A DNA stretch of 9,587 nucleotides from Candidatus Nanopusillus sp. GTDB taxonomy: Archaea > Nanobdellota > Nanobdellia > Nanobdellales > Nanobdellaceae. The notes under the pieces were generated by a model. The model made no database searches and was not told the DNA's origin. It saw nothing but the letters and a program-made list of their open reading frames with translations. The position numbers and the translations under genes were made by a program. Where the stretch lies: contig JAPWTZ010000016.1 in NCBI GenBank assembly GCA_028275775.1, positions 1-9,587 of the forward strand, given 5' to 3'. Position 1 is the first letter of the stretch. The number at the start of each line of letters is the position of its first letter. Below, piece by piece: positions 1 to 9,587 of the stretch.

Positions 1-510
1 TGTTAAATTTAATAATTGACCATTTGATGATACTACTCCTACTGCTGGCATGTAGTTTGAACCTGATCCAAAGTTATTAAATGTTATTTGATCTGATGCT
101 GGTTGTACATATGCTTCATATGTATAACTTTGTCCATTTATTTGGAATGATCCTGATCCTACTTGTAATACTGGATATACACTATTTATATTACTACCTA
201 AGTAAAGAGGTGCTTGTGATGAGTAAAGTGGATATACACCAGATGGAACTTGAGATACACTTGTTGAACTTACATTAACTGTTACATTTTGAGTTGATGG
301 TACTGTAAATGTTTCCAAAGCTGCAATTATGTTTGAGGCCCCTACAACATCTGCTGCATTGGCATTTGCTCCTACTACTACTGTCCATGATGTTGGTTGT
401 GATTTCATAGACTGTGCTAATTGACCTATTGTTGGTGCTCCTTGAGAATATGCTGCTACTCCCAATATTCCTAATGCTCCCAAAACTGCTAAGGTCTTAC
501 CTCTCATCAT
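1..510 (-). CDS. S-layer / surface glycoprotein precursor, N-terminal 170 codons (3' end lies beyond the left window edge)
   Basis: Missing from the ORF track because there is no stop codon inside the window. My reverse-complement translation from ATG 510..508 stays open for all 170 codons down to position 1: MMRGKTLAVLGALGILGVAAYSQGAPTIGQLAQSMKSQPTSWTVVVGANANAADVVGASNIIAALETFTVPSTQNVTVNVSSTSVSQVPSG...NGQLLNLT. It has a textbook Sec signal peptide (MMRGK, then a hydrophobic core, then YSQG/AP). The VVVGxxAxAADVVGAxxIxAAL motif is the one I know from archaeal S_layer_N domains (Methanococcales/Thermococcales-type S-layer proteins). Composition is rich in S/T/G/V/A, and there are three N-x-S/T sequons (NVT, NVS, NLT). 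An in-frame ATG at 552..550 would add 14 codons (MEKGYKGKNPYRYF), and a stop lies two codons upstream of that. Confidence 0.7.
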   Translation of the reverse strand, partial: MMRGKTLAVLGALGILGVAAYSQGAPTIGQLAQSMKSQPTSWTVVVGANANAADVVGASNIIAALETFTVPSTQNVTVNVSSTSVSQVPSGVYPLYSSQAPLYLGSNINSVYPVLQVGSGSFQINGQSYTYEAYVQPASDQITFNNFGSGSNYMPAVGVVSSNGQLLNLT

Positions 511-572
511 AAAATATCTATATGGATTTTTTCCCTTATATCCTTTTTCCATGATTTATTTAATTATGATAG

Positions 573-590
573 AATTTAAAAGGTTTTCGA
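573..590 (-). promoter_or_regulatory. Candidate BRE/TATA for the S-layer gene
   Basis: The minus strand reads TCGAAAACCTTTAAATTCT. TTTAAATT (plus 573-580) is preceded by a purine-rich BRE-like GAAAAC. The TATA centre lies about 26 nt upstream of the ATG at 552, which would give a leaderless mRNA. A second, weaker TATA-like GATATAAG (plus 534-541) sits about 27 nt upstream of the ATG at 510, so the true start is unresolved. In DNA this AT-rich, TATA-like strings arise easily by chance. Confidence 0.3.
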
Positions 591-642
591 TTTTTGATTA
601 AAATTAATTATAACCAATAAGTAACAACTCTATTATCAAGTT

Positions 643-656
643 AAAATATCAAAAAA
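643..656 (-). terminator. Oligo-T tract downstream of membrane-protein paralog A
   Basis: On the minus strand, immediately after the TAA stop (664..662), the sequence reads AATTA-TTTTTT-GATA-TTTT. Archaeal intrinsic termination typically uses T-tracts. The signal is weak against the AT-rich background. Confidence 0.25.
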
Positions 657-661
657 TAATT

Positions 662-1342
662 TTATAATTCTTTAGCCTTCAATAGTGCTACCAATGTTAC
701 TGTTGGTACCACAAATATAGTTAGTAAAATGAAAAATATTGCCATTCCATAATTTATTGAAATTGTTAACGCATATATTACATATATAATAGCCAATATT
801 ACTGATGCAATTATCGTGTATAATAGTATATATGCAAATAATATCAACGATTTTTCAAAATATATTGATAATTTATTTACTTTTCCTAAAATAGATCCAT
901 AGAATGTATATAGAAGTAGTATACTCAATATTATTGATATTATAATAATTGCCCATCCAATAATTATTAATGTTGGATTATATGATACATATTGATAACC
1001 TGTTAATCCAAATAGATTCATATATCCAGCTGATGCTAAAGATCCAACTGATACTGAAGTAATACCATTTAAAATAAATATTATTCCTATAGATGCTAAT
1101 AGATTTGGTATTAATAATGATAAAAATGATGTTTTATAATCTGGATTAATATTTTCTCCTGTAACTTTTGAATAATACCAGGATACTACACTTGGATAGA
1201 AATATGAATATATTATTACCCCCAATATTGGTAATGCTATAGATAAGAACCCCAGCACTGCTGCTGAAATAACAAATAATATACTATCTGCAAAATTTTT
1301 TCTCATATACTCAAAAGCCTTTTTATATATGTCTACTACCAT
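662..1342 (-). CDS. Uncharacterised polytopic membrane protein, paralog A (226 aa, about 5 TM segments)
   Basis: A 226-codon ORF in DNA where stop codons should occur roughly every 11 codons by chance. It has long hydrophobic segments. It shares these motifs with the adjacent gene: LPIxGxIIxSYxYP, WYYSKVTGENINPD(Y/H)KTSFLSLLIPNLL, YGSILGKVNKLSI and C-terminal LLKAKEL. A TATA-like TTTTTATATC lies about 24 nt upstream of the ATG. I recognise no enzymatic motif. The resemblance to DUF975/DUF4013-type small membrane proteins is only vague. Confidence 0.8.
   Translation of the reverse strand: MVVDIYKKAFEYMRKNFADSILFVISAAVLGFLSIALPILGVIIYSYFYPSVVSWYYSKVTGENINPDYKTSFLSLLIPNLLASIGIIFILNGITSVSVGSLASAGYMNLFGLTGYQYVSYNPTLIIIGWAIIIISIILSILLLYTFYGSILGKVNKLSIYFEKSLILFAYILLYTIIASVILAIIYVIYALTISINYGMAIFFILLTIFVVPTVTLVALLKAKEL
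863..901 (-). repeat. Identity block 1, copy A (39 nt, 100% identical to 1556-1594)
   Basis: Direct read: tattgataatttatttacttttcctaaaatagatccata occurs at both 863-901 and 1556-1594, an offset of 693. It encodes YGSILGKVNKLSI in both paralogs with no synonymous differences. Confidence 0.9.
1101..1180 (-). repeat. Identity block 2, copy A (80 nt, 79/80 identical to 1821-1900)
   Basis: Direct read: agatttggtattaataatgataaaaatgatgttttat[a/g]atctggattaatattttctcctgtaacttttgaataatacca occurs at 1101-1180 and 1821-1900, an offset of 720. The single mismatch (1138 against 1858) is nonsynonymous (Tyr/His). It encodes WYYSKVTGENINPD(Y/H)KTSFLSLLIPNL. Confidence 0.9.
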
Positions 1343-1372
1343 AAATAATAGATTTTAAAAAGATATAAAAAA

Positions 1373-2065
1373 TTACAATTCCTTAGCTTTTAGTAGTAAT
1401 ATTAGATTTAATGCTGGATATACAATCATTATATTTAAAATTATTACAATTATACTTCCCAATAAAGGTATTTTACCAATTATTAATAATATTATATCAG
1501 CAATAATATAAAATAAAAGCCAGTATGCAAATAATGTTAAGGACTTCTCAGCATCTATTGATAATTTATTTACTTTTCCTAAAATAGATCCATAAATACT
1601 ATATAATAATAATAACCACATTATTCCACTAACTATTATTATAATTATACCAATAACTATTCCTAAAAGAACATATGGAAGAAGATGGAAATTAGATAAA
1701 CTCATTAATATTAATTGTTGTAGATTATTGATATTCAATATATTTGTAAAAGTTAATCCTAGCTGTACTAAAATACTAACTAATACTACTAATATTATGG
1801 TTATACCAATAGAAAATAATAGATTTGGTATTAATAATGATAAAAATGATGTTTTATGATCTGGATTAATATTTTCTCCTGTAACTTTTGAATAATACCA
1901 TTTAGTTAATCTTGGATAAAGATATGAAAATATAATTGCTCCTATTATTGGTAATAAAAATAATAGACCCTGTAATATATAAAATAATATACCATATATT
2001 ATACTCTCTATTATATGATCCTTTACTAAATCAATAGATTTTTTATATGTTTCTAAAAGACCCAT
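1373..2065 (-). CDS. Uncharacterised polytopic membrane protein, paralog B (230 aa)
   Basis: A 230-codon ORF in tandem with, and on the same strand as, paralog A, separated by a 30-nt spacer. It has the same conserved motif set and the same C-terminal LLKAKEL. The central roughly 50 residues cannot be aligned with paralog A. It has its own TATA-like TTTTAAAT about 24 nt upstream of the ATG. Confidence 0.8.
   Translation of the reverse strand: MGLLETYKKSIDLVKDHIIESIIYGILFYILQGLLFLLPIIGAIIFSYLYPRLTKWYYSKVTGENINPDHKTSFLSLLIPNLLFSIGITIILVVLVSILVQLGLTFTNILNINNLQQLILMSLSNFHLLPYVLLGIVIGIIIIIVSGIMWLLLLYSIYGSILGKVNKLSIDAEKSLTLFAYWLLFYIIADIILLIIGKIPLLGSIIVIILNIMIVYPALNLILLLKAKEL
1556..1594 (-). repeat. 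Identity block 1, copy B
   Basis: See 863-901. Identical 39-mer. Confidence 0.9.
1821..1900 (-). repeat. Identity block 2, copy B
   Basis: See 1101-1180. 79/80 identical. Confidence 0.9.
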
Positions 2066-2095
2066 AAGAATTTTTCTTAATAAAAATTTAAAATA

Positions 2096-3619
2096 TTATC
2101 TTTTTGCAAACTTTATACCCTTCTTTTCATATTCAATAATATCGATTAACATTTCATCCTCATTTTTATATTCTTTCTTTAATAAAAATCTTGCAGATAA
2201 ATAACTTATACCCTTACCAGCATAAATAAATACAAATTTTTTACCATAATTTCTTAATAATTCAGCAGTTATATTTAATTTTTTCTCATCTTCCAAATCT
2301 TTTTCACTTTTTGCAACACCAAAATATTGACCTCCACATTTTTTACATTTAAATTTTTCATTATAATCCTTTACTTTTATTTTATATTTTGTTCCACATG
2401 CCATACAAACGAATATTAATTCTGTATTTTCAATTCTTTCCTTTACCAACTTTAATACTTCTCTCCATTTATCAGAAATCAATACATCTGATACATATTC
2501 TTCCAATCCTAAAATTGCTAAGGGAGATATATTTTCTCTATCAATAATATTTACCTTTATTTTTCTTTCCTTTATTTTCTTTAATATCATCTTTAAATTT
2601 TTTAAATCCAATTTTTCAATAAATAATTCATTTAATGTTTCTTTATATACTGGTGTATTTATTAAATGATCTAAAATTCTTCTTAAAGTAGATTTTGAAT
2701 AATCTGCATCCTTTCTAATTACTCCAAATCTTTTTGCAACATGAGAAAATTTCCATAAAAACAGATCTGTATTAACTATTGCCTTTTCCAATATATTTTC
2801 AACATTATCTAAATCAATATTTTCAATTACTTCCTTAATATTTTCCTTTGTAATATATCCAGCCTTTAACATTATTCTATATGGATCTGTTTTTATCCCA
2901 ACAACAATTCCATATTTTTCGGATAATATTTCAGAAATTAATCTTGATAATGCATCATTTATTTTAGTTCCAAATGGAGAATGAATAATAAACCAGTCCC
3001 TATATTGTTCAATATAAATATTATCTTTATTTGGATAAAAATATAATTCTTGATTTTTTAATTCATCAAAATTTAATAAATCTCTTTTTATTTCTTGTGC
3101 TTCCTGTGCAACCTCCAATGGAACAGGTAATAATTCACCTTCCCAGGAAGGTATTGCAGATTCGAAATCTTTTTCTAATCCAACCAAAATTTTGTTTTTT
3201 TCAACTTTTTCAATCTTCCATGGTAAACCCCTTAATATAAATATTGTACCAGGATTTCCATGTTTTGCAACAAATTCTTCATGTAATATACCAATTTTTT
3301 GACCAGTTGTTATATCATATACATCATATGATTTTTCATCAGGTATCATTGAAATATTATCTAAAAAATAAAATAATCCTTTTCTTGTCTTAATTAATTT
3401 TTTATTTTCTTTATCATATATTAAAATCTTTATTGAATCTAAGAAATTTATTATTTCTAAAAATTCTTCATATGTTAAATCTTTATATATATAAGATCTT
3501 TTTATTGTATTCCAAACAATATCAATATTAACTTCTCCATATTCCAAAGTCATCCCTACAATTTGATTTGCTAATACATCTAAAGCATTATAATGTATTT
3601 CAGGTTTTTCAAGTTTCAT
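2096..3619 (-). CDS. Lhr-type (COG1201) helicase, stand-alone C-terminal half: winged helix, DEAD_assoc/domain 4, Cys4 zinc ribbon and C-terminal tail. No RecA helicase core.
   Basis: The ORF track starts at a TTG (3640). I prefer the ATG at 3619 (MKLEKPEIHYNALDVLANQIVGM...), which has a TATA-like TTTATATA (3652..3645) about 29 nt upstream. Family motifs recognised by eye: ALDVLANQIVGM (compare PLDVLAQQIV at the start of the Lhr winged-helix domain), IPDEKSYDVYDITTGQKIGILHEEFV...GTIFILRGLPWKIEKVEKNKILV, AIPSWEGELLPVP, and a zinc ribbon CMAC-x16-CKKC (nt 2336-2407). Walker A, DEAH and motif VI are absent anywhere in the ORF. Confidence 0.8.
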   Translation of the reverse strand: MKLEKPEIHYNALDVLANQIVGMTLEYGEVNIDIVWNTIKRSYIYKDLTYEEFLEIINFLDSIKILIYDKENKKLIKTRKGLFYFLDNISMIPDEKSYDVYDITTGQKIGILHEEFVAKHGNPGTIFILRGLPWKIEKVEKNKILVGLEKDFESAIPSWEGELLPVPLEVAQEAQEIKRDLLNFDELKNQELYFYPNKDNIYIEQYRDWFIIHSPFGTKINDALSRLISEILSEKYGIVVGIKTDPYRIMLKAGYITKENIKEVIENIDLDNVENILEKAIVNTDLFLWKFSHVAKRFGVIRKDADYSKSTLRRILDHLINTPVYKETLNELFIEKLDLKNLKMILKKIKERKIKVNIIDRENISPLAILGLEEYVSDVLISDKWREVLKLVKERIENTELIFVCMACGTKYKIKVKDYNEKFKCKKCGGQYFGVAKSEKDLEDEKKLNITAELLRNYGKKFVFIYAGKGISYLSARFLLKKEYKNEDEMLIDIIEYEKKGIKFAKR

Positions 3620-3640
3620 GATTATTATATTTATAACCAA

Positions 3641-3711: not shown

Positions 3712-4167
3712 ATGATAACAACATCAGAGGGATTAGATGAAATAATGAGATGCATAGATAAAAACATTGGAAGAGTTTCTTTATATACAATTAAACAATT
3801 ATTAGCTAGTAAAGGAGTATATGATTATACAGATGGAACATCTACCATTAATTATAAAAATAGAGATACGATAGAATATAAAAAGTACATAATAGGTATG
3901 AGCATTGTTGATTTTCTTTATGTAGAAGGTGGATGCAATTTACCAATACAGACTACATATTCACTTAATAAAAATGTATATATAGAAATTGCAAATAAAG
4001 TTTTAAAAAGATTAGAAGACAATAGCATAATAAAAATAAGAGAAAATTATATCATAATAATAAAAGATTCTTTTAATATCGCAAAAGAACTTGAAAGAAA
4101 ACATGGGATACCATGGAAAGATGCTTACGATATTATTGAAGGAATAAAAAGAAAAAGGAATTATTAA
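3712..4167 (+). CDS. Hypothetical protein, 151 aa (soluble, lysine-rich; possibly winged-helix-like)
   Basis: A 151-codon ORF in stop-rich DNA with a plausible TATA at about -25. I recognise no family. The segments GRVSLYTIKQLLASKG and IANKVLKRLEDNSIIKIRENYIII look like HTH/wing elements, but this is only a guess. Confidence 0.6.
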   Translation: MITTSEGLDEIMRCIDKNIGRVSLYTIKQLLASKGVYDYTDGTSTINYKNRDTIEYKKYIIGMSIVDFLYVEGGCNLPIQTTYSLNKNVYIEIANKVLKRLEDNSIIKIRENYIIIIKDSFNIAKELERKHGIPWKDAYDIIEGIKRKRNY

Positions 4168-6032
4168 TTTTTTAATCCCAAATATTTATCTAAACTTTCT
4201 TTAAATTCCTTCCACCATTCAACATAATCTTCATATTTTTCAAATTTCCAATCATTAGAATTTAATTCTTTACACATTGTAGATACAAGATCCATTGCCC
4301 TCTTACTTTCCCATAGAACAGGTTCTGCATTTGCTTTTATTGAATATTCAGCAATCTCTTTATATAGATTTTTATCTAAATCTTTTCCAGTAATTTCTTT
4401 ATATAATTTATCTAATACAGGTTCATAAGCACCTCTATAAAATCTACATATTCCTAAATCTTCAATTAAAGATTCATTTATTGCCCTTCCATATGAAAAT
4501 CTTGCAAAAATTTCTGGTCTTGCAAATGAATTCGAATAATCTGTCCAATATTTTCCCAAAATATACATTGGAGCAACCATTCCTGGACTCCAATATAAAT
4601 TTGGAGTAATATATCCTTCATTTCCAAAAGATGCATATACAACATAATCATTAAATTTATTATCCTTAATCCTTTCCTTATATTTTTCATTTAATATTTT
4701 TGAAGATATTCTTATTCCCTTTTCAGATATTAAAGATAATATTTCATTATTTTTCTTAATTAATCCTTCAATAATTTTTTCTGCAATTTTTGAATTTTTA
4801 TAAGAATCATTTTTTGGATCGAAATTCTCAAAATTAAATATTGGATATTCATTTAATCCAATTTCTTCAGGTTCTAATAATTTATTCTCAATTAAATCAA
4901 ATAACCATGAAATTAAATGTCCAACTTCAATTGCATCCATTCCATATTGATCTACTAAATCTACTAATTTCAATGCTTCTTCAAATATATAATTACCAAT
5001 AAATGGACCTAAAGAATGGAAAGGTTCGTAATCTACTTTTTTACCCTTATATACTTTTTTACATGCTACATTACATAAATCTCCACATGTAAACCATGAT
5101 TTATTTTTTATAAATACTTCTTCCTGGAAAGGTTTCCAAAATAATTCAATAATATTTTCATAATGTTTTCTCCTTAATTCTTTTGGATAATATATTGATT
5201 TATATCCAAATAAAGGCAATAATTCTTTATATAATATATAATTTTCACCAAAAGTTCCTCCAGATCCTGTTTCTGGATCATATCTATATTTCTTTGTCTT
5301 TTCATTAATAACATCTATATATCCTTTTCCAAATTTTTCTAAGAATATTTTATTTATTAATTGAAAATCATTTACCTTTTCATATCTATATTTATAATTT
5401 CCACCAGAAACTATACCTAAAATATTATGACCTTTAAATAATGAAGAACCTGCACCACCCCTTCCAGAAAAATCTTCAGAACCAATTCTAAATTCTCCAT
5501 TAATTATATCAAATGAAAATAAATTCCCATTATATGTATAAATAGATCCTTCTCCAACAACAACTGCCCTTGCATTATAATTTAAAAAGAAATCATTATA
5601 TTTTTCTAATAAATATCTTGAAAATGCATATACACCTTTATAATTTTTATATGAATTTACATAATTTATAGATTCGATTTTTACATTATTTGGAGAAATA
5701 AAAATTACAGAAGGTTCTTTTGAATATCCAATAATTACAATTCCATCAATTCCAGATCCCATAAATTTAAATCCAACACCACCAATTGAAGAAAAATGCA
5801 ATGTTCTTGTTAATGGACTTTTAAATATTGCAACCATTCTATGAACTCCAAATAATCTTCCACCAACAAATGGACCTAAACCAAATATAAAAGGGACTGA
5901 AGGATCATAAATATCTTTTTTCCATGATTCATATTCATTATGTATCTTTACTCCTAAAGAAATAATTCCTTGAGAATCTATATCAGAAATTTTATATTCA
6001 CCCTTATCTAAATTTATAAATAATACCTTCAT
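4164..6032 (-). CDS. Aldehyde:ferredoxin oxidoreductase (AOR) family tungsto/molybdopterin enzyme, most like glyceraldehyde-3-phosphate:ferredoxin oxidoreductase (GAPOR)
   Basis: 622 aa. AOR-family landmarks seen by eye: N-terminal FGLGPFVGG...VAIFKSPLT...GG, GRGGAGSSLFKGHNILGIVSGG, the Cys cluster region TCGDLCNVACKK followed by DYEPFHSLGP, the pterin-binding-type DQYGMDAIEVGHLISW, and the distal EDLGICRFYRG (fourth cluster Cys). The overall length, KYRYDPETGSGGTFGENY and the TCGxxCxxxCKK arrangement match my recollection of Pyrococcus GAPOR better than AOR or FOR. I am more confident of the family than of the GAPOR subtype. Confidence 0.8.
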   Translation of the reverse strand: MKVLFINLDKGEYKISDIDSQGIISLGVKIHNEYESWKKDIYDPSVPFIFGLGPFVGGRLFGVHRMVAIFKSPLTRTLHFSSIGGVGFKFMGSGIDGIVIIGYSKEPSVIFISPNNVKIESINYVNSYKNYKGVYAFSRYLLEKYNDFFLNYNARAVVVGEGSIYTYNGNLFSFDIINGEFRIGSEDFSGRGGAGSSLFKGHNILGIVSGGNYKYRYEKVNDFQLINKIFLEKFGKGYIDVINEKTKKYRYDPETGSGGTFGENYILYKELLPLFGYKSIYYPKELRRKHYENIIELFWKPFQEEVFIKNKSWFTCGDLCNVACKKVYKGKKVDYEPFHSLGPFIGNYIFEEALKLVDLVDQYGMDAIEVGHLISWLFDLIENKLLEPEEIGLNEYPIFNFENFDPKNDSYKNSKIAEKIIEGLIKKNNEILSLISEKGIRISSKILNEKYKERIKDNKFNDYVVYASFGNEGYITPNLYWSPGMVAPMYILGKYWTDYSNSFARPEIFARFSYGRAINESLIEDLGICRFYRGAYEPVLDKLYKEITGKDLDKNLYKEIAEYSIKANAEPVLWESKRAMDLVSTMCKELNSNDWKFEKYEDYVEWWKEFKESLDKYLGLKN

Positions 6033-6043
6033 AAATTAAAAAA

Positions 6044-7045
6044 CTATTTTATTCCTTTTAAAATTTCTGATATTTTTTCTTTAACATATAACCCTTTAGG
6101 TTCACCAAAAGCTTTCTTTGTTATTCTACAAAAGTCACATATATCTTTAGATGTTGGCATTCCACAATATTTACATTTATTTAATTTTATTTCTTCTTTC
6201 TTTTCATAAAATTTAATATTTCTTGCAATAGCTCTTGCTAAAGATATTTTAAATCCAGGATTTTCTTTCTCCATTTTATCCAAAAATTCCCTAATTTTTG
6301 TTTCAATTCTTTTACTACCATATTTAAATGGACATTGATCTTCCAAATATGGAATACCTGATAATTTTGCATATAATTTTGTTTCTTCTTCAGATATTTC
6401 ATATAATGGTCTAATTCTCCCAACTAGAGAATCTATTTTTTCTGTTTTAGGACCTAATTTACTTATTGAATATAAATCCTGTAAAAAGAAATTTTTAATT
6501 ATATAAGGTAATAGATCATCCATATGATGTCCTAAAGCAATATAATCTACATTTAATTCATTTGCAGCAACATTTAATATATATCTCCTTAATAATCCAC
6601 ATATACTACATGCAGGTCTTATATATTTTACTCTATAATTTGGTAATATTTTTGCACCTAATTTTATTAATGTTTCTGGTAAATATGATCCAATAATTTC
6701 TTTAGAATCTAAAATTATAAATTCTGTATTATATTCTTTACTAAAATTCTTTATAGCTTCTAAAGATTTTTTAGAAAAATCATATATTCCTAGATTTATA
6801 TGTAAACCGATTAATTCAAAACCAATTTCATCCTTTATATTTAATAATATATGATATAATGATGTACTATCTTTACCCCCAGAAACTCCTACCAATATTT
6901 TTTGTCCTTTTTTAATTAACTTATATCTTTTAATTGTTTCTAATACTCTTCTTTGTATATATTTTATATAATGATCCTTACATAACCATAATTTTGAATA
7001 TGGAATTTTTATAATTGCATCTTTTTCACAATAAAAGCATTTCAT
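6044..7045 (-). CDS. tRNA 2-thiolation PP-loop ATPase, TtuA / NcsA (Ncs6/Ctu1) family
   Basis: 333 aa. N-terminal zinc finger CFYC-x15-CKDH, PP-loop SGGKDS, [4Fe-4S]/catalytic cysteines in PACSICG and DQCPF, and a C-terminal zinc finger CKYC-x9-CDFC. This domain order is characteristic of TtuA/Ncs6-type tRNA sulfurtransferases. Confidence 0.85.
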   Translation of the reverse strand: MKCFYCEKDAIIKIPYSKLWLCKDHYIKYIQRRVLETIKRYKLIKKGQKILVGVSGGKDSTSLYHILLNIKDEIGFELIGLHINLGIYDFSKKSLEAIKNFSKEYNTEFIILDSKEIIGSYLPETLIKLGAKILPNYRVKYIRPACSICGLLRRYILNVAANELNVDYIALGHHMDDLLPYIIKNFFLQDLYSISKLGPKTEKIDSLVGRIRPLYEISEEETKLYAKLSGIPYLEDQCPFKYGSKRIETKIREFLDKMEKENPGFKISLARAIARNIKFYEKKEEIKLNKCKYCGMPTSKDICDFCRITKKAFGEPKGLYVKEKISEILKGIK

Positions 7046-7081: not shown

Positions 7082-8413
7082 ATGAAAAATTCTCTCATGA
7101 ATAAATATGATTATATTTATATATTTCTTATATCATTTATACCACAATTAATTATTTTATTATTATCTCCTCCAATATTGTTTTGGGATGAATATTCATA
7201 TTTAGATAATGTAAAACATATATTATTAAATACCCCATATTTTGAATATTATAGATTTCCATTATTATGGTGGATATTAATTCCAATTTCTTATATTACA
7301 AATTTCAATATATTTTTTATAAAATTATTTTTAATTTTCATTTTTTCTTTATCAACAGTATTTTTATATAAAATATTGGAAGAATATGATAATAAATATA
7401 TAAACTATATTTTGATTTTATTTTATTCATTAAATGGATTATTTTTAATTTGGGCATCAAGAATTTATCCAGATGTTTTAGCATCTTCTTTATTAATTTT
7501 TTCAATATATTTCTATATAAAATACTTTAAAGATAATAAAGAAAGAAATTTAATTTTATATTCATTATTTTCAGTTCTATCAATTCTTTCAAAATATGAA
7601 TATGGTTTATGGTTAATTTCTTCAATAATTTTTTTAAAAAATAAGGATAAATTAAAAACAATATTATATTCTTTTCTATTTTCAATCCCATATTTTTTAT
7701 ATAACTTAATATTATATCATAATCCAATATTTATATTTATTAAACAGGCTGAAGTTGTCTATGCATATACATCTTATCAACCTCTTTCAATATTTTTATT
7801 CAATTTATTTATATTTTCTTCTGCATATCTTTTTTCTTTATTACAAAACCCAAAGAAAATTGAAAACTATAATAAATCTATATATTTATATATAATATTA
7901 TCAATAATATTTCTTGCATTTTTTGTTAAAGCGAAAGATGCAAGATATATTTTAATGATATTACCCCCATTTTTAATATTAACAAGGATATTTATTAATA
8001 AAATAAAAGGTTTACAATTTCCATATTTATTTTTATTTTCATTATTAAATATTATGTCAATATATTATGGTATAGCATTTTTAATAAATTATAATACAAA
8101 TCTTGGAAATACATATTTAAATTATGTATATAGAGCTTCAGAATACTTAAAACAATATAATCCAAAAGTAATATTAACAAATGTTAATTGGCCAATGGTT
8201 GCATATTATACAAATTCTCAGGTTTATATAATGTATAATGCTACATATTTAATCCCAAGAGTTTATCCCCAATTTATTATATATTCTCCAAATTGTGGAA
8301 CACCTTTTCCATTTAATCCAAATGATTATAATATATCATTAATATATTATTATATAGATCCAAATGATTGCCAAATATATATTTATAAAGTAAATAGTTA
8401 TTTTGTTAAATAA
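7082..8413 (+). CDS. GT-C fold membrane glycosyltransferase (PMT_2 / ArnT-like family), 443 aa
   Basis: About 10 or more hydrophobic segments. It has an acidic first-loop motif FWDEYSYLDN after TM1, then YYRFPLLWW and RIYPDVLASS, in the order seen in ArnT/PMT_2-type lipid-linked-sugar transferases. A C-terminal non-membrane domain carries N-x-S/T sequons. There is no WWDYG motif, so it is not an AglB/STT3 oligosaccharyltransferase. Confidence 0.55.
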   Translation: MKNSLMNKYDYIYIFLISFIPQLIILLLSPPILFWDEYSYLDNVKHILLNTPYFEYYRFPLLWWILIPISYITNFNIFFIKLFLIFIFSLSTVFLYKILEEYDNKYINYILILFYSLNGLFLIWASRIYPDVLASSLLIFSIYFYIKYFKDNKERNLILYSLFSVLSILSKYEYGLWLISSIIFLKNKDKLKTILYSFLFSIPYFLYNLILYHNPIFIFIKQAEVVYAYTSYQPLSIFLFNLFIFSSAYLFSLLQNPKKIENYNKSIYLYIILSIIFLAFFVKAKDARYILMILPPFLILTRIFINKIKGLQFPYLFLFSLLNIMSIYYGIAFLINYNTNLGNTYLNYVYRASEYLKQYNPKVILTNVNWPMVAYYTNSQVYIMYNATYLIPRVYPQFIIYSPNCGTPFPFNPNDYNISLIYYYIDPNDCQIYIYKVNSYFVK

Positions 8414-9057
8414 CCTTCCAATTCATTCAAACTTGCAAATCCTCTAATAGTATATGTTTCATTATATTTATATATAATAATAAATGGCCAGGTAGTAATA
8501 TTATACTTTAAATTATAATAACTTATAAAGTAATTTGGATAACTTGAATCAAAAGAATATATATACAAATTATGCTGATTTTGTACATATAAATATGTTA
8601 AAATATCACCTTCCTGATTACATGCACTTCCACAATATTTATTATTATAGAAATATAATATCAATGTGAAATTTGTTATATTGCAATCTTCTATATATTT
8701 TCTAGTTAATAAAAAGTGTAAATATTCCATATTAAAATATTGAGATTTTAAATATTTTACTTCTTCTTTATTATAATATATATTTTCCTTCGATTCTAAA
8801 TATGTCAATTCCTGCCCAATCTGAGCAATTTGAGATTTCAAATATTCTAAAAAAGATAAATAATTATTACTACACTCTAAACTTTGAGAACTTGCTAAAT
8901 ATTGGGCTGAAATTACCAATGAATTTATTTCATCAATTTGTAATATACTCTGTTGAAATGAATACTGATATAATAAATAACCTAAAATTATTCCTAAGAA
9001 AAAGGATAATATAGATATTATTACTGCTACTATTATTATGTTTCTTGGTTTATCCAT
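8398..9057 (-). CDS. Membrane-anchored (N-terminal TM) extracytoplasmic thioredoxin-fold protein with a C-G-S-A-C (CxxxC) motif, 219 aa
   Basis: A single N-terminal TM (IIIVAVIISILSFFLGIILGYLLY), then a helical/coiled linker, then a C-terminal roughly 95 aa that aligns by eye almost without gaps to E. coli TrxA: LILYFYNNKYCGSACN against ILVDFWAEWCGPCK, NITTWPFIIIY against IRGIPTLLLF (cis-Pro), and RGFASLNELEGYL against VGALSKGQLKEFL. The Cys pair is at nt 8620-8634. Three sequons (NIT, NIT, NET) fit an outside location. Confidence 0.55.
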   Translation of the reverse strand: MDKPRNIIIVAVIISILSFFLGIILGYLLYQYSFQQSILQIDEINSLVISAQYLASSQSLECSNNYLSFLEYLKSQIAQIGQELTYLESKENIYYNKEEVKYLKSQYFNMEYLHFLLTRKYIEDCNITNFTLILYFYNNKYCGSACNQEGDILTYLYVQNQHNLYIYSFDSSYPNYFISYYNLKYNITTWPFIIIYKYNETYTIRGFASLNELEGYLTK

Positions 9058-9587
9058 ATTTTTTATTTAAAAGTTTATTTATTAAACTATTATTCCATAC
9101 AATCCCACCCCATCTTAGATTCTTACCAAACAATTTATAATATACTGCTACAATTATAAAAATTGCATTAAAATATATTGAAAAAATTAGGTATATAATT
9201 GAATAATAAATTATTGATAACCATGATTTTGATTTATCATATCTTCTATATATACTAATAAAAAGAAAGAAATCTATTAACAAGATAATTGAAAATATCA
9301 TTAAAATCAATTGGGATGTAGATAATAATTGAAAGATATATGTATTAATATTAAAAGAAAAATAATTTTTGATGAAATAGGATATATCATAATTTATAGA
9401 AGATAGATATATTAAAAAATTATATAATTGATATCCATATGTATATAATATTACTGAAAATGCTAATGGTATTAAAATATATAAAATTATATTAATACCA
9501 AAAACAACTTCTCTTAAATATTCATTTTCAATATCTCTATATTTCATATAATTTTCAATAAATCCCAATGTCCATCTTACTCTTTGT
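9050..9587 (-). CDS. Cys-free polytopic membrane protein, probably 5'-truncated by the window edge
   Basis: The ORF track starts it at a TTG (9568), but the frame stays open to the last base of the window (...QRVRWT-LGFIENYMKYRD...). I see no convincing TATA upstream of the internal ATG at 9547. The gene therefore probably begins beyond 9587. It has four to five hydrophobic segments. Its stop overlaps the start of the downstream thioredoxin-fold gene (ATGGATAA, 9057..9050), which indicates co-transcription and translational coupling. Confidence 0.6.
   Translation of the reverse strand, partial: QRVRWTLGFIENYMKYRDIENEYLREVVFGINIILYILIPLAFSVILYTYGYQLYNFLIYLSSINYDISYFIKNYFSFNINTYIFQLLSTSQLILMIFSIILLIDFFLFISIYRRYDKSKSWLSIIYYSIIYLIFSIYFNAIFIIVAVYYKLFGKNLRWGGIVWNNSLINKLLNKKYG

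Follow-up and report, generated by a model that had tools for sequence, protein, structure and literature searches.

The 9,587-nucleotide (nt) stretch of DNA analysed here from Candidatus Nanopusillus sp. (contig JAPWTZ010000016.1 of assembly GCA_028275775.1; hereafter, the window) carries a tandem pair of paralogous membrane-protein genes, termed A and B, which share two sharply bounded blocks of nearly identical nucleotides inside otherwise diverged coding sequences. These blocks very probably mark short tracts in which non-reciprocal homologous recombination (gene conversion) between the two paralogs has taken place repeatedly, and the same patches sometimes cross over. Among related genomes the variants found within the blocks follow the genome and not the paralog, whereas the flanking sequences are clearly orthologous; the position of the tracts and their variability between lineages can be read from the alignments, and public assemblies contain recombinant genes with junctions in the same patches. 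Short-tract gene conversion, which a first-pass annotation of this DNA had listed among several possible explanations of the blocks, thus becomes the leading one. The process is of a kind already known, newly seen in Nanoarchaeota, and does not call for a new mechanism.

Paralog A (662..1342, minus strand; 226 amino acids, aa) is the downstream gene and paralog B (1373..2065, minus strand; 230 aa) the upstream gene of the pair, and both open reading frames are predicted to encode six-helix membrane proteins. The gene order on the minus strand is a gene for an Lhr C-terminal-module protein, followed by B, A, and an S-layer protein gene. The window is very A+T rich (G+C content of ~22%), and its proteins have their closest homologs in Candidatus Nanopusillus and Candidatus Nanobsidianus. 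Proteins A and B are ~49% identical to each other, and the orthologues of B in Nanopusillus and Nanobsidianus are 69-99% identical. The two genes are separated by a 30-nt spacer (1343..1372, minus strand) with an A+T-rich TATA-like stretch. A similar spacer precedes each of A and B, and in the triplicated locus L041 described below, the chimera and the A gene each again have a spacer of this type upstream, which suggests that A has its own promoter within the TATA-like spacer.

The family to which A and B belong is tiny, with 35 representatives in a search of all protein cluster representatives covering 1.84 billion proteins. Neither protein has a Pfam match even at E <= 10, and no match was found in NCBIfam or by a profile search of the PDB. 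The AlphaFold2 model of B is all-helical with a predicted local distance difference test (pLDDT) score of 75, and a Foldseek comparison of this model with the PDB gave nothing significant (best E = 1.8, template modeling score, TM <= 0.24). The name DUF4013 (Pfam PF13197), given by one source to the homolog P0097, was rejected as an identification, since A, B, and P0097 all lack a Pfam match at E <= 10. Lys and Arg residues are essentially restricted to the two termini and the loops of block 2 and block 1, apart from one extra Lys of B in the short loop that precedes its last helix, and the long variable segment between the blocks contains none; in combination with the positive-inside rule, this distribution suggests the six-helix topology. 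It further suggests that the converted blocks correspond to cytoplasmic loops plus adjacent helix ends, and that the paralog-specific, lineage-variable segment between the blocks faces outward.

Block 2, which in the gene direction comes first, occupies positions 1097..1180 in A and 1817..1900 in B (both minus strand); the two copies are identical at 83 of 84 nt and encode WYYSKVTGENINPDYKTSFLSLLIPNLL, the first charged, predicted cytoplasmic loop together with helix ends. Block 1, at 863..901 in A and 1556..1594 in B (both minus strand), is identical at 39 of 39 nt and encodes YGSILGKVNKLSI, the second charged, predicted cytoplasmic loop. The first-pass annotation had reported block 1 with these limits and a shorter block 2 (1101-1180 = 1821-1900, 79/80 identical, the single difference being nonsynonymous); both observations were reproduced, and block 2 was found to extend 4 nt farther. 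On the gene strand, the one difference is TAT (Tyr) in A and CAT (His) in B. This His is unique to the B copy of the window genome and therefore reflects a mutation that postdates the last conversion. Between the blocks lie the paralog-specific middle segments (902..1096 in A and 1595..1816 in B, minus strand), which comprise helix 3, a variable loop predicted to be outside, and helix 4; the segment of B is 9 codons longer than that of A. The A-B offset accordingly changes from 693 to 720 nt, as previously described, and the 27-nt gap is a 9-codon indel in the variable loop. A third conserved patch, encoding LPILGVIIYSYFYP in A (1193..1234, minus strand) and LPIIGAIIFSYLYP in B (1913..1954, minus strand), is not identical between the two copies in the window genome. 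The edges of block 2 coincide with the start of paralog-specific codon runs, SVVS/RLTK on one side and A/F on the other.

In the codon-aware alignment of A and B, 115 residues are identical and 78 of them use the same codon, namely 40 of 40 inside the blocks and 38 of 75 outside, so that synonymous sites outside the blocks are effectively saturated. Counting only degenerate codons, synonymous differences occur in 0 of 39 codons in the blocks vs. 36 of 72 elsewhere, which bears out the earlier count of zero across roughly 39 block codons; the individual codon contrasts quoted next to the blocks (ATA/ATT, GGA/GGT, CTA-CTT-CTA against TTA-TTA-TTA, and four of seven codons in LLKAKEL) are likewise all correct. 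One conceivable account of such a pattern is chance combined with extreme codon bias, in which a genome of 22% G+C simply reuses A/T-ending codons at conserved residues. The strong A+T richness of the genome speaks for it, as does the absence of synonymous differences anywhere in the pair for the block residues N, D, F, T, and P. The amino-acid-stratified test, which shuffles the same/different codon status only within each amino-acid class and thus controls for codon bias, nevertheless assigns P = 5e-8 (hypergeometric) to the observed 0 of 39 differing degenerate codons; among 200,000 stratified shuffles, the lowest number of differing block codons was 2 and the mean was 10.5. Identical sites are thus clustered beyond what divergence and codon usage predict, the property sought by GENECONV-type tests. 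Furthermore, residues L, I, K, G, and S differ in ~40-50% of their codons outside the blocks, the synonymous difference between paralogs in the blocks is 0.077 against an amino-acid-matched expectation of 0.34, and codon bias gives no account of genome-specific variants common to both copies. Codon bias, whose sufficiency had been named earlier as grounds for abandoning the block signal, is therefore rejected by the stratified tests and is almost certainly not the explanation.

For comparison, we fetched 31 related loci, 5 from genomes and 26 from metagenomes; the former include the finished 605,887-bp genome of the cultured Ca. Nanopusillus acidilobi (L002) and the genome of Ca. Nanobsidianus stetteri. 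The order B then A is found in 21 of 21 Nanopusillus/Nanobsidianus loci from which both genes were recovered complete. Most of the other loci are cut by contig ends or carry frameshifts, fitting the same order, and one (L028) is a fusion. In L030 (2501-3920), B is split into three frames and the middle of A is garbled, by either pseudogene frameshifts or sequencing errors in the assembly. The longest exact A-B runs lie at the same two positions in all 21 genomes and range from 23 to 89 nt; their presence also in the finished L002 genome shows that the blocks are not an assembly artefact.

Distance and nearest-neighbour tests were performed on 18 non-redundant genomes, i.e., 36 sequences. Outside the blocks, there are 83 fixed nucleotide differences between A and B, which are dense in the middle segments; the distance between paralogs, d(A,B), is ~0.45 vs. 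0.16-0.27 between orthologs, and the nearest neighbour is an ortholog for 36 of 36 sequences and the own paralog for none. The block 2 region behaves in the opposite way: across its 84 nt, no difference between A and B is fixed and 19 polymorphisms are common to both. Here 16 of the 18 genomes have a smaller d(A,B) within the genome than between genomes, 18 of the 36 sequences have their own paralog as closest neighbour (ties included), and none of 20,000 permutations of the B-to-A pairing reached the observed value (P < 5e-5), with the same outcome when pairings were permuted within major clades only. Block 1 and the third patch (alignment columns 37-51) also have no fixed A/B differences. 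The hallmarks of concerted evolution are thus found together: closeness to the own paralog within the tract (in block 2), grouping by paralog in the flanks, and derived variants present in both copies. An independent recent duplication in each lineage was rejected, since the flanks are orthologous across genomes and saturated between the paralogs at synonymous sites; this agrees with the earlier view of the blocks as discrete patches and not the remains of a recent whole-gene duplication.

Variants carried by both A and B of a single genome occur at synonymous as well as nonsynonymous positions. The former include TTG and AAT-TTA in L008, TTC in L001, ACT in L002/L013, AAG and GAG in L021, and TCT-CTA in L004; the latter include Ser58 (B numbering) within WYYS in the window genome, DYS in L019, KIAF...PTLLM in L021, and GED in L004. 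Hence the blocks are similar but not identical across species, with differences common to both copies of a genome, whereas nucleotide blocks identical across species and paralogs had been put forward as evidence against gene conversion. The tract ends also differ by lineage: the B copy of L003 has the A-type sequences LLASIGI and YFEKSLILFAY, and the B copy of L021 has the A-type LLMS. In several cases the transfer looks to have gone from A to B. The varying run lengths and tract ends point to conversions that recurred with differing end points and then decayed by mutation. Protein constraint alone is insufficient to explain the A-B identity, since distant members of the family (~30% identity) retain only WYY.K..G and YGS.LGK, the motifs at the core of the blocks, and the remainder of the 28-residue block 2 is unconserved in these relatives.

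The amino-acid-matched synonymous difference in the blocks rises from the above 0.077 between paralogs of the same genome to 0.098 between paralogs of the same major clade and 0.159 between paralogs across major clades, the last value being close to that between orthologs across major clades (0.151); outside the blocks, paralogs differ at 0.34-0.42. Synonymous difference in the blocks therefore tracks only the relatedness of the genomes and not the identity of the paralog, a pattern characteristic of concerted evolution through recurrent gene conversion. The first-pass annotation had also suggested that the blocks are constrained at the nucleotide level; they could then function as mRNA structure, as a target of small or antisense RNA, or as an internal promoter or binding site. 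Block synonymous sites do change between genomes, at ~60-100% of the flank rate, and they change in both copies together, which constraint alone does not predict; nor would constraint produce fusion genes with junctions in the blocks. A search of window positions 1-2500 against Rfam gave no matches at E <= 1, and the predicted folds of both blocks, on both strands and in extended contexts, are no more stable than those of shuffled sequences (z-scores from -1.1 to +1.15). A feature that fits a structural role is the perfect 8-nt inverted repeat of block 2, which on the gene strand begins with TGGTATTA and has TAATACCA near its end, closing the predicted mRNA fold; this fold has z = -1.1, and there is too little variation for covariation analysis. 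Altogether, a function of the blocks as RNA or DNA is a very improbable source of their identity.

Several observations weigh against gene conversion as a complete and uniform account. First, the cross-clade synonymous divergence between orthologs in the blocks, 0.151, is only ~58% of the amino-acid-matched expectation of 0.261, which also speaks for nucleotide constraint; either mild extra constraint or preferential between-lineage exchange at the blocks may add to the conversion signal. Second, the excess of within-genome similarity is weak in block 1 (P = 0.02-0.03, own paralog nearest for 5 of 36 sequences), in clade 1 a few synonymous differences between A and B are consistently retained there, and the 39/39 identity in the window rests on a short tract. 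The weak signal and the clade 1 differences indicate that conversion of block 1 is apparently rarer or older across the genomes than that of block 2, while in the window genome it is recent. Third, the recombinant genes described below all come from metagenome assemblies, and the exact join in one of them would look alike for a real deletion and for a mis-join. The reading as gene conversion tracts retains its high probability in the face of these points, with block 2 as the principal site of both conversion and crossing-over.

Recombinant genes were recognized among the homologs of A and B, the list of which held proteins of intermediate identity that proved to be chimeric. We classed 120 cluster representatives as A or B by their N-terminal, middle, and C-terminal segments, and obtained 55 proteins with the pattern BBB, 54 with AAA, seven with BAA, one each with BBA and ABB, and two N-terminally truncated proteins with -BB. 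The patterns BAB and ABA were not encountered, so that no exchange of the variable segment was seen among the 120 proteins. With the addition of L028 to the seven representatives, there are eight BAA-type fusions. Each of the fusions examined at the DNA level shows one clean switch from B to A across 121 diagnostic alignment columns. The junctions fall in block 2 (L032, L038/L039, L040, L028, and also the chimera in L041), in block 1 (L037/P0056), or in the third patch, LPIxGAII..SY.YP, where the breakpoint of the P0059 fusion in L033-L036 lies between columns 36 and 51. The fusions with contigs read (all but P0061 and P0063) are single genes in place of the pair; they come after the Lhr-C gene in all contigs that contain upstream sequence, and where the downstream sequence is long enough and was identified, they are followed by the S-layer gene. 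The reciprocal product is represented by L041, in which the end of a B gene is followed by a complete A/B chimera joined in block 2 and next by an A gene up to block 2, where the contig ends. Fusion and triplication are reciprocal products, as expected of unequal crossing-over between tandem repeats. Thus, the deletion and duplication products of non-allelic homologous recombination, with junctions in homology patches, are both present, in metagenome assemblies only.

L028 was considered as a single-copy outgroup equidistant from A and B, a role it lost when it proved to be a B/A fusion. It consists of the first 254 nt of the B gene and the last 558 nt of the A gene of L021, joined exactly across an 89-nt identical block. 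Such a join also illustrates a narrower doubt, namely that conversion is real and the chimeras and the triplication are assembly or polymerase chain reaction artefacts formed at the identical blocks. All of them are on short metagenome contigs of 0.9-4.2 kb, L038 has ~2x coverage according to its contig name, and L041 stops inside block 2 of its third gene. On the other hand, the P0059 fusion is identical in four separate samples/assemblies and its junction patch has no long perfect identity; the contig of P0060 is labelled as a Celera draft assembly, which we take to mean long Sanger reads; and several chimeras are on contigs with k141 names, presumably produced by MEGAHIT, whose final k-mer would then be longer than the blocks. 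Even in comparison with the closest two-gene loci of the sample, the chimeras show 1-8% divergence, and between the flanks of L028 and those of L021 the divergence is 0.6-2.2%. We consider an artefactual origin of the recombinant genes a minor possibility, though less remote than the other alternatives discussed here, and presume that every chimera is biological. In L040 (a YNPsite14 contig), the B-derived part has 2 differences in 165 positions to the B gene of L012 vs. 15 in 165 to that of L009, and the A-derived part (5 differences in 432) and both flanks (99.2-99.4% identity) are closest to L009; this points to recombination among different Nanopusillus lineages in addition to that inside genomes, or else to strain mixing in the assembly.

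The recurrence of the fusions raises the further possibility that the blocks are selected anchors, maintained because recombination is useful for switching between two-gene, fused, and triplicated states or for shuffling the outward loop next to the S-layer gene. Fusions arose repeatedly and independently in different clades (L032 and L038, both of clade 1, L040, L037, and L033; further L028, P0057, P0061, and P0063), a triplication exists, ~8% of the cluster representatives are recombinant, and the segment between the blocks is the most variable one, predicted to face outward and located beside an S-layer gene. If this were true, toggling would alter the displayed outward loops of a membrane-protein pair directly upstream of the S-layer gene, a simple form of recombination-based surface variation in an obligate archaeal ectosymbiont that might be tied to host attachment. 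However, deletions and duplications at homology patches are to be expected as by-products wherever a tandem repeat exists, A and B are full-length genes that each apparently have their own promoter, silent donor copies are absent, and there is no evidence of selection or of within-strain switching. The first-pass annotation had proposed anchors that allow a variable cassette to be shuffled between the copies; crossovers at the blocks are indeed documented by the B/A fusions and the one triplication, whereas a swap of the variable cassette does not occur in any of the 120 family proteins. Selected anchors are therefore improbable, and we prefer gene conversion with occasional crossing-over.

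Thus, we propose the following scenario for the conversion tracts. The duplication that gave rise to A and B predates the divergence of the sampled Nanopusillus and Nanobsidianus lineages. The loops encoded by both blocks would be functionally interchangeable between the paralogs, and copying between them would be tolerated for that reason. Each conversion, presumably carried out by RadA-type recombination enzymes, would restore perfect homology and thereby make the next event more likely. The tracts would end at clusters of paralog-specific codons, where either heterology blocks their extension or selection removes longer tracts, and either of these could produce the sharp block edges. Misaligned copies would occasionally cross over at the same patches, giving rise to single B/A fusions by deletion and to B-A/B-A triplications.

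The remaining genes of the window surround the pair on both sides, and none of them encodes a recombinase. Positions 1-552 (minus strand) encode the N-terminal part of the S-layer protein, which begins like a signal peptide (MRGKTLAVLGALGILGVAAYSQG); this region has a G+C content of ~36% vs. ~22% in the remaining window, and a full-length orthologue of 827 aa with the PF05124 S_layer_C domain is present in L033/L034. In all loci that reach far enough, the paralog pair immediately precedes the S-layer gene. On the other side, the Lhr C-terminal-module protein (2096-3640, minus strand, 514 aa) contains WH_Lhr and DEAD_assoc domains and a Cys-rich zinc-ribbon-like stretch, and no helicase core. 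Split genes are common in Nanoarchaeota, and this module, which stands alone also in L032, may be one half of a split Lhr gene. It is followed by an open reading frame for 151 aa with no Pfam match (3712-4167, plus strand), an aldehyde:ferredoxin-oxidoreductase-like protein with AFOR_N and AFOR_C domains (4164-6032, minus strand), a homolog of which is unexpected in so reduced a symbiont, a TtuA-like tRNA 2-thiolation protein (6044-7045, minus strand), and a PMT_2-type glycosyltransferase membrane protein (7082-8413, plus strand). The last two open reading frames, for 219 aa (8398-9057, minus strand) and 172 aa (9050-9568, minus strand), have no Pfam match and resemble membrane or secreted proteins. 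In two related loci, L018 (15-413) and L030 (24-437), a weak third match to the A/B family (29-34% identity over ~150 aa) is found ~2 kb upstream of the pair and may represent a distant additional paralog; no comparable third match was reported in the window itself.

The conversion tracts of A and B indicate active homologous recombination, operating on very short homology, in a DPANN symbiont with a reduced genome. If the assembled fusions and the triplication are real, recombination at this locus yields copy-number variants as well as conversions. In Nanoarchaeota, the locus could be used as a natural reporter of tract length and of the minimal length of homology. Caution is also called for on the part of annotators and phylogeneticists, as the gene pair and its fusions can be expected to give conflicting trees.

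Among known systems, conserved segments that flank a variable segment and serve as sites of recombination bring to mind antigenic and phase variation by gene conversion of cassettes, as in Neisseria pilE/pilS and Borrelia vlsE, where the variable segment is likewise surface-exposed, as predicted for A and B. In contrast to these systems, A and B have no silent donors, exchange of the variable segment was not seen, and the conserved segments are homogenised instead. The absence of donors and of variable-segment exchange places the locus outside cassette-type programmed variation. The recombinant products are closer to the textbook cases of unequal crossing-over, i.e., the Lepore and anti-Lepore globin genes and the opsin arrays, with which they share the reciprocal products, here a single B/A fusion in place of the pair and a B-A/B-A triplication, with junctions in the short patches of highest identity. 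They differ from these cases in that they come from metagenome assemblies of natural archaeal populations and not from pedigrees or clones, and in that the patches are only tens of nucleotides long.

The closest parallels are concerted prokaryotic paralogs. Gene conversion between archaeal chaperonin subunit paralogs was reportedly described by Archibald and Roger in 2002. A systematic survey of prokaryotic paralogs identified 26 cases of long-lasting concerted evolution, of which the seven archaeal ones are all from methanogens and include the tandem mtrA pair; known examples of conversion comprise tufA/tufB in bacteria and mtrA, mtmB/C, glnB, and histone duplicates in methanogens (PMC6053082). 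In the literature library searched, no paper joins Nanopusillus and gene conversion. The A/B pair resembles concerted prokaryotic paralogs in the greater similarity of paralogs within a genome than of orthologs between genomes, in long-term recurrence, in the tandem arrangement of the copies (as for mtrA), and in conversion of part of the gene with the rest remaining paralog-specific. It differs from them in that the tracts are only ~40 and 85 nt long in genes that are otherwise 49% identical, in that the host is a DPANN nanoarchaeote with a ~0.6-Mb genome, and in that the products are orphan membrane proteins and not core machinery. In this comparison, the A/B locus is an unusually clean natural case of mosaic concerted evolution, in which tracts of ~40-85 nt have been homogenised throughout the history of a family-level clade while the rest of the genes became saturated.

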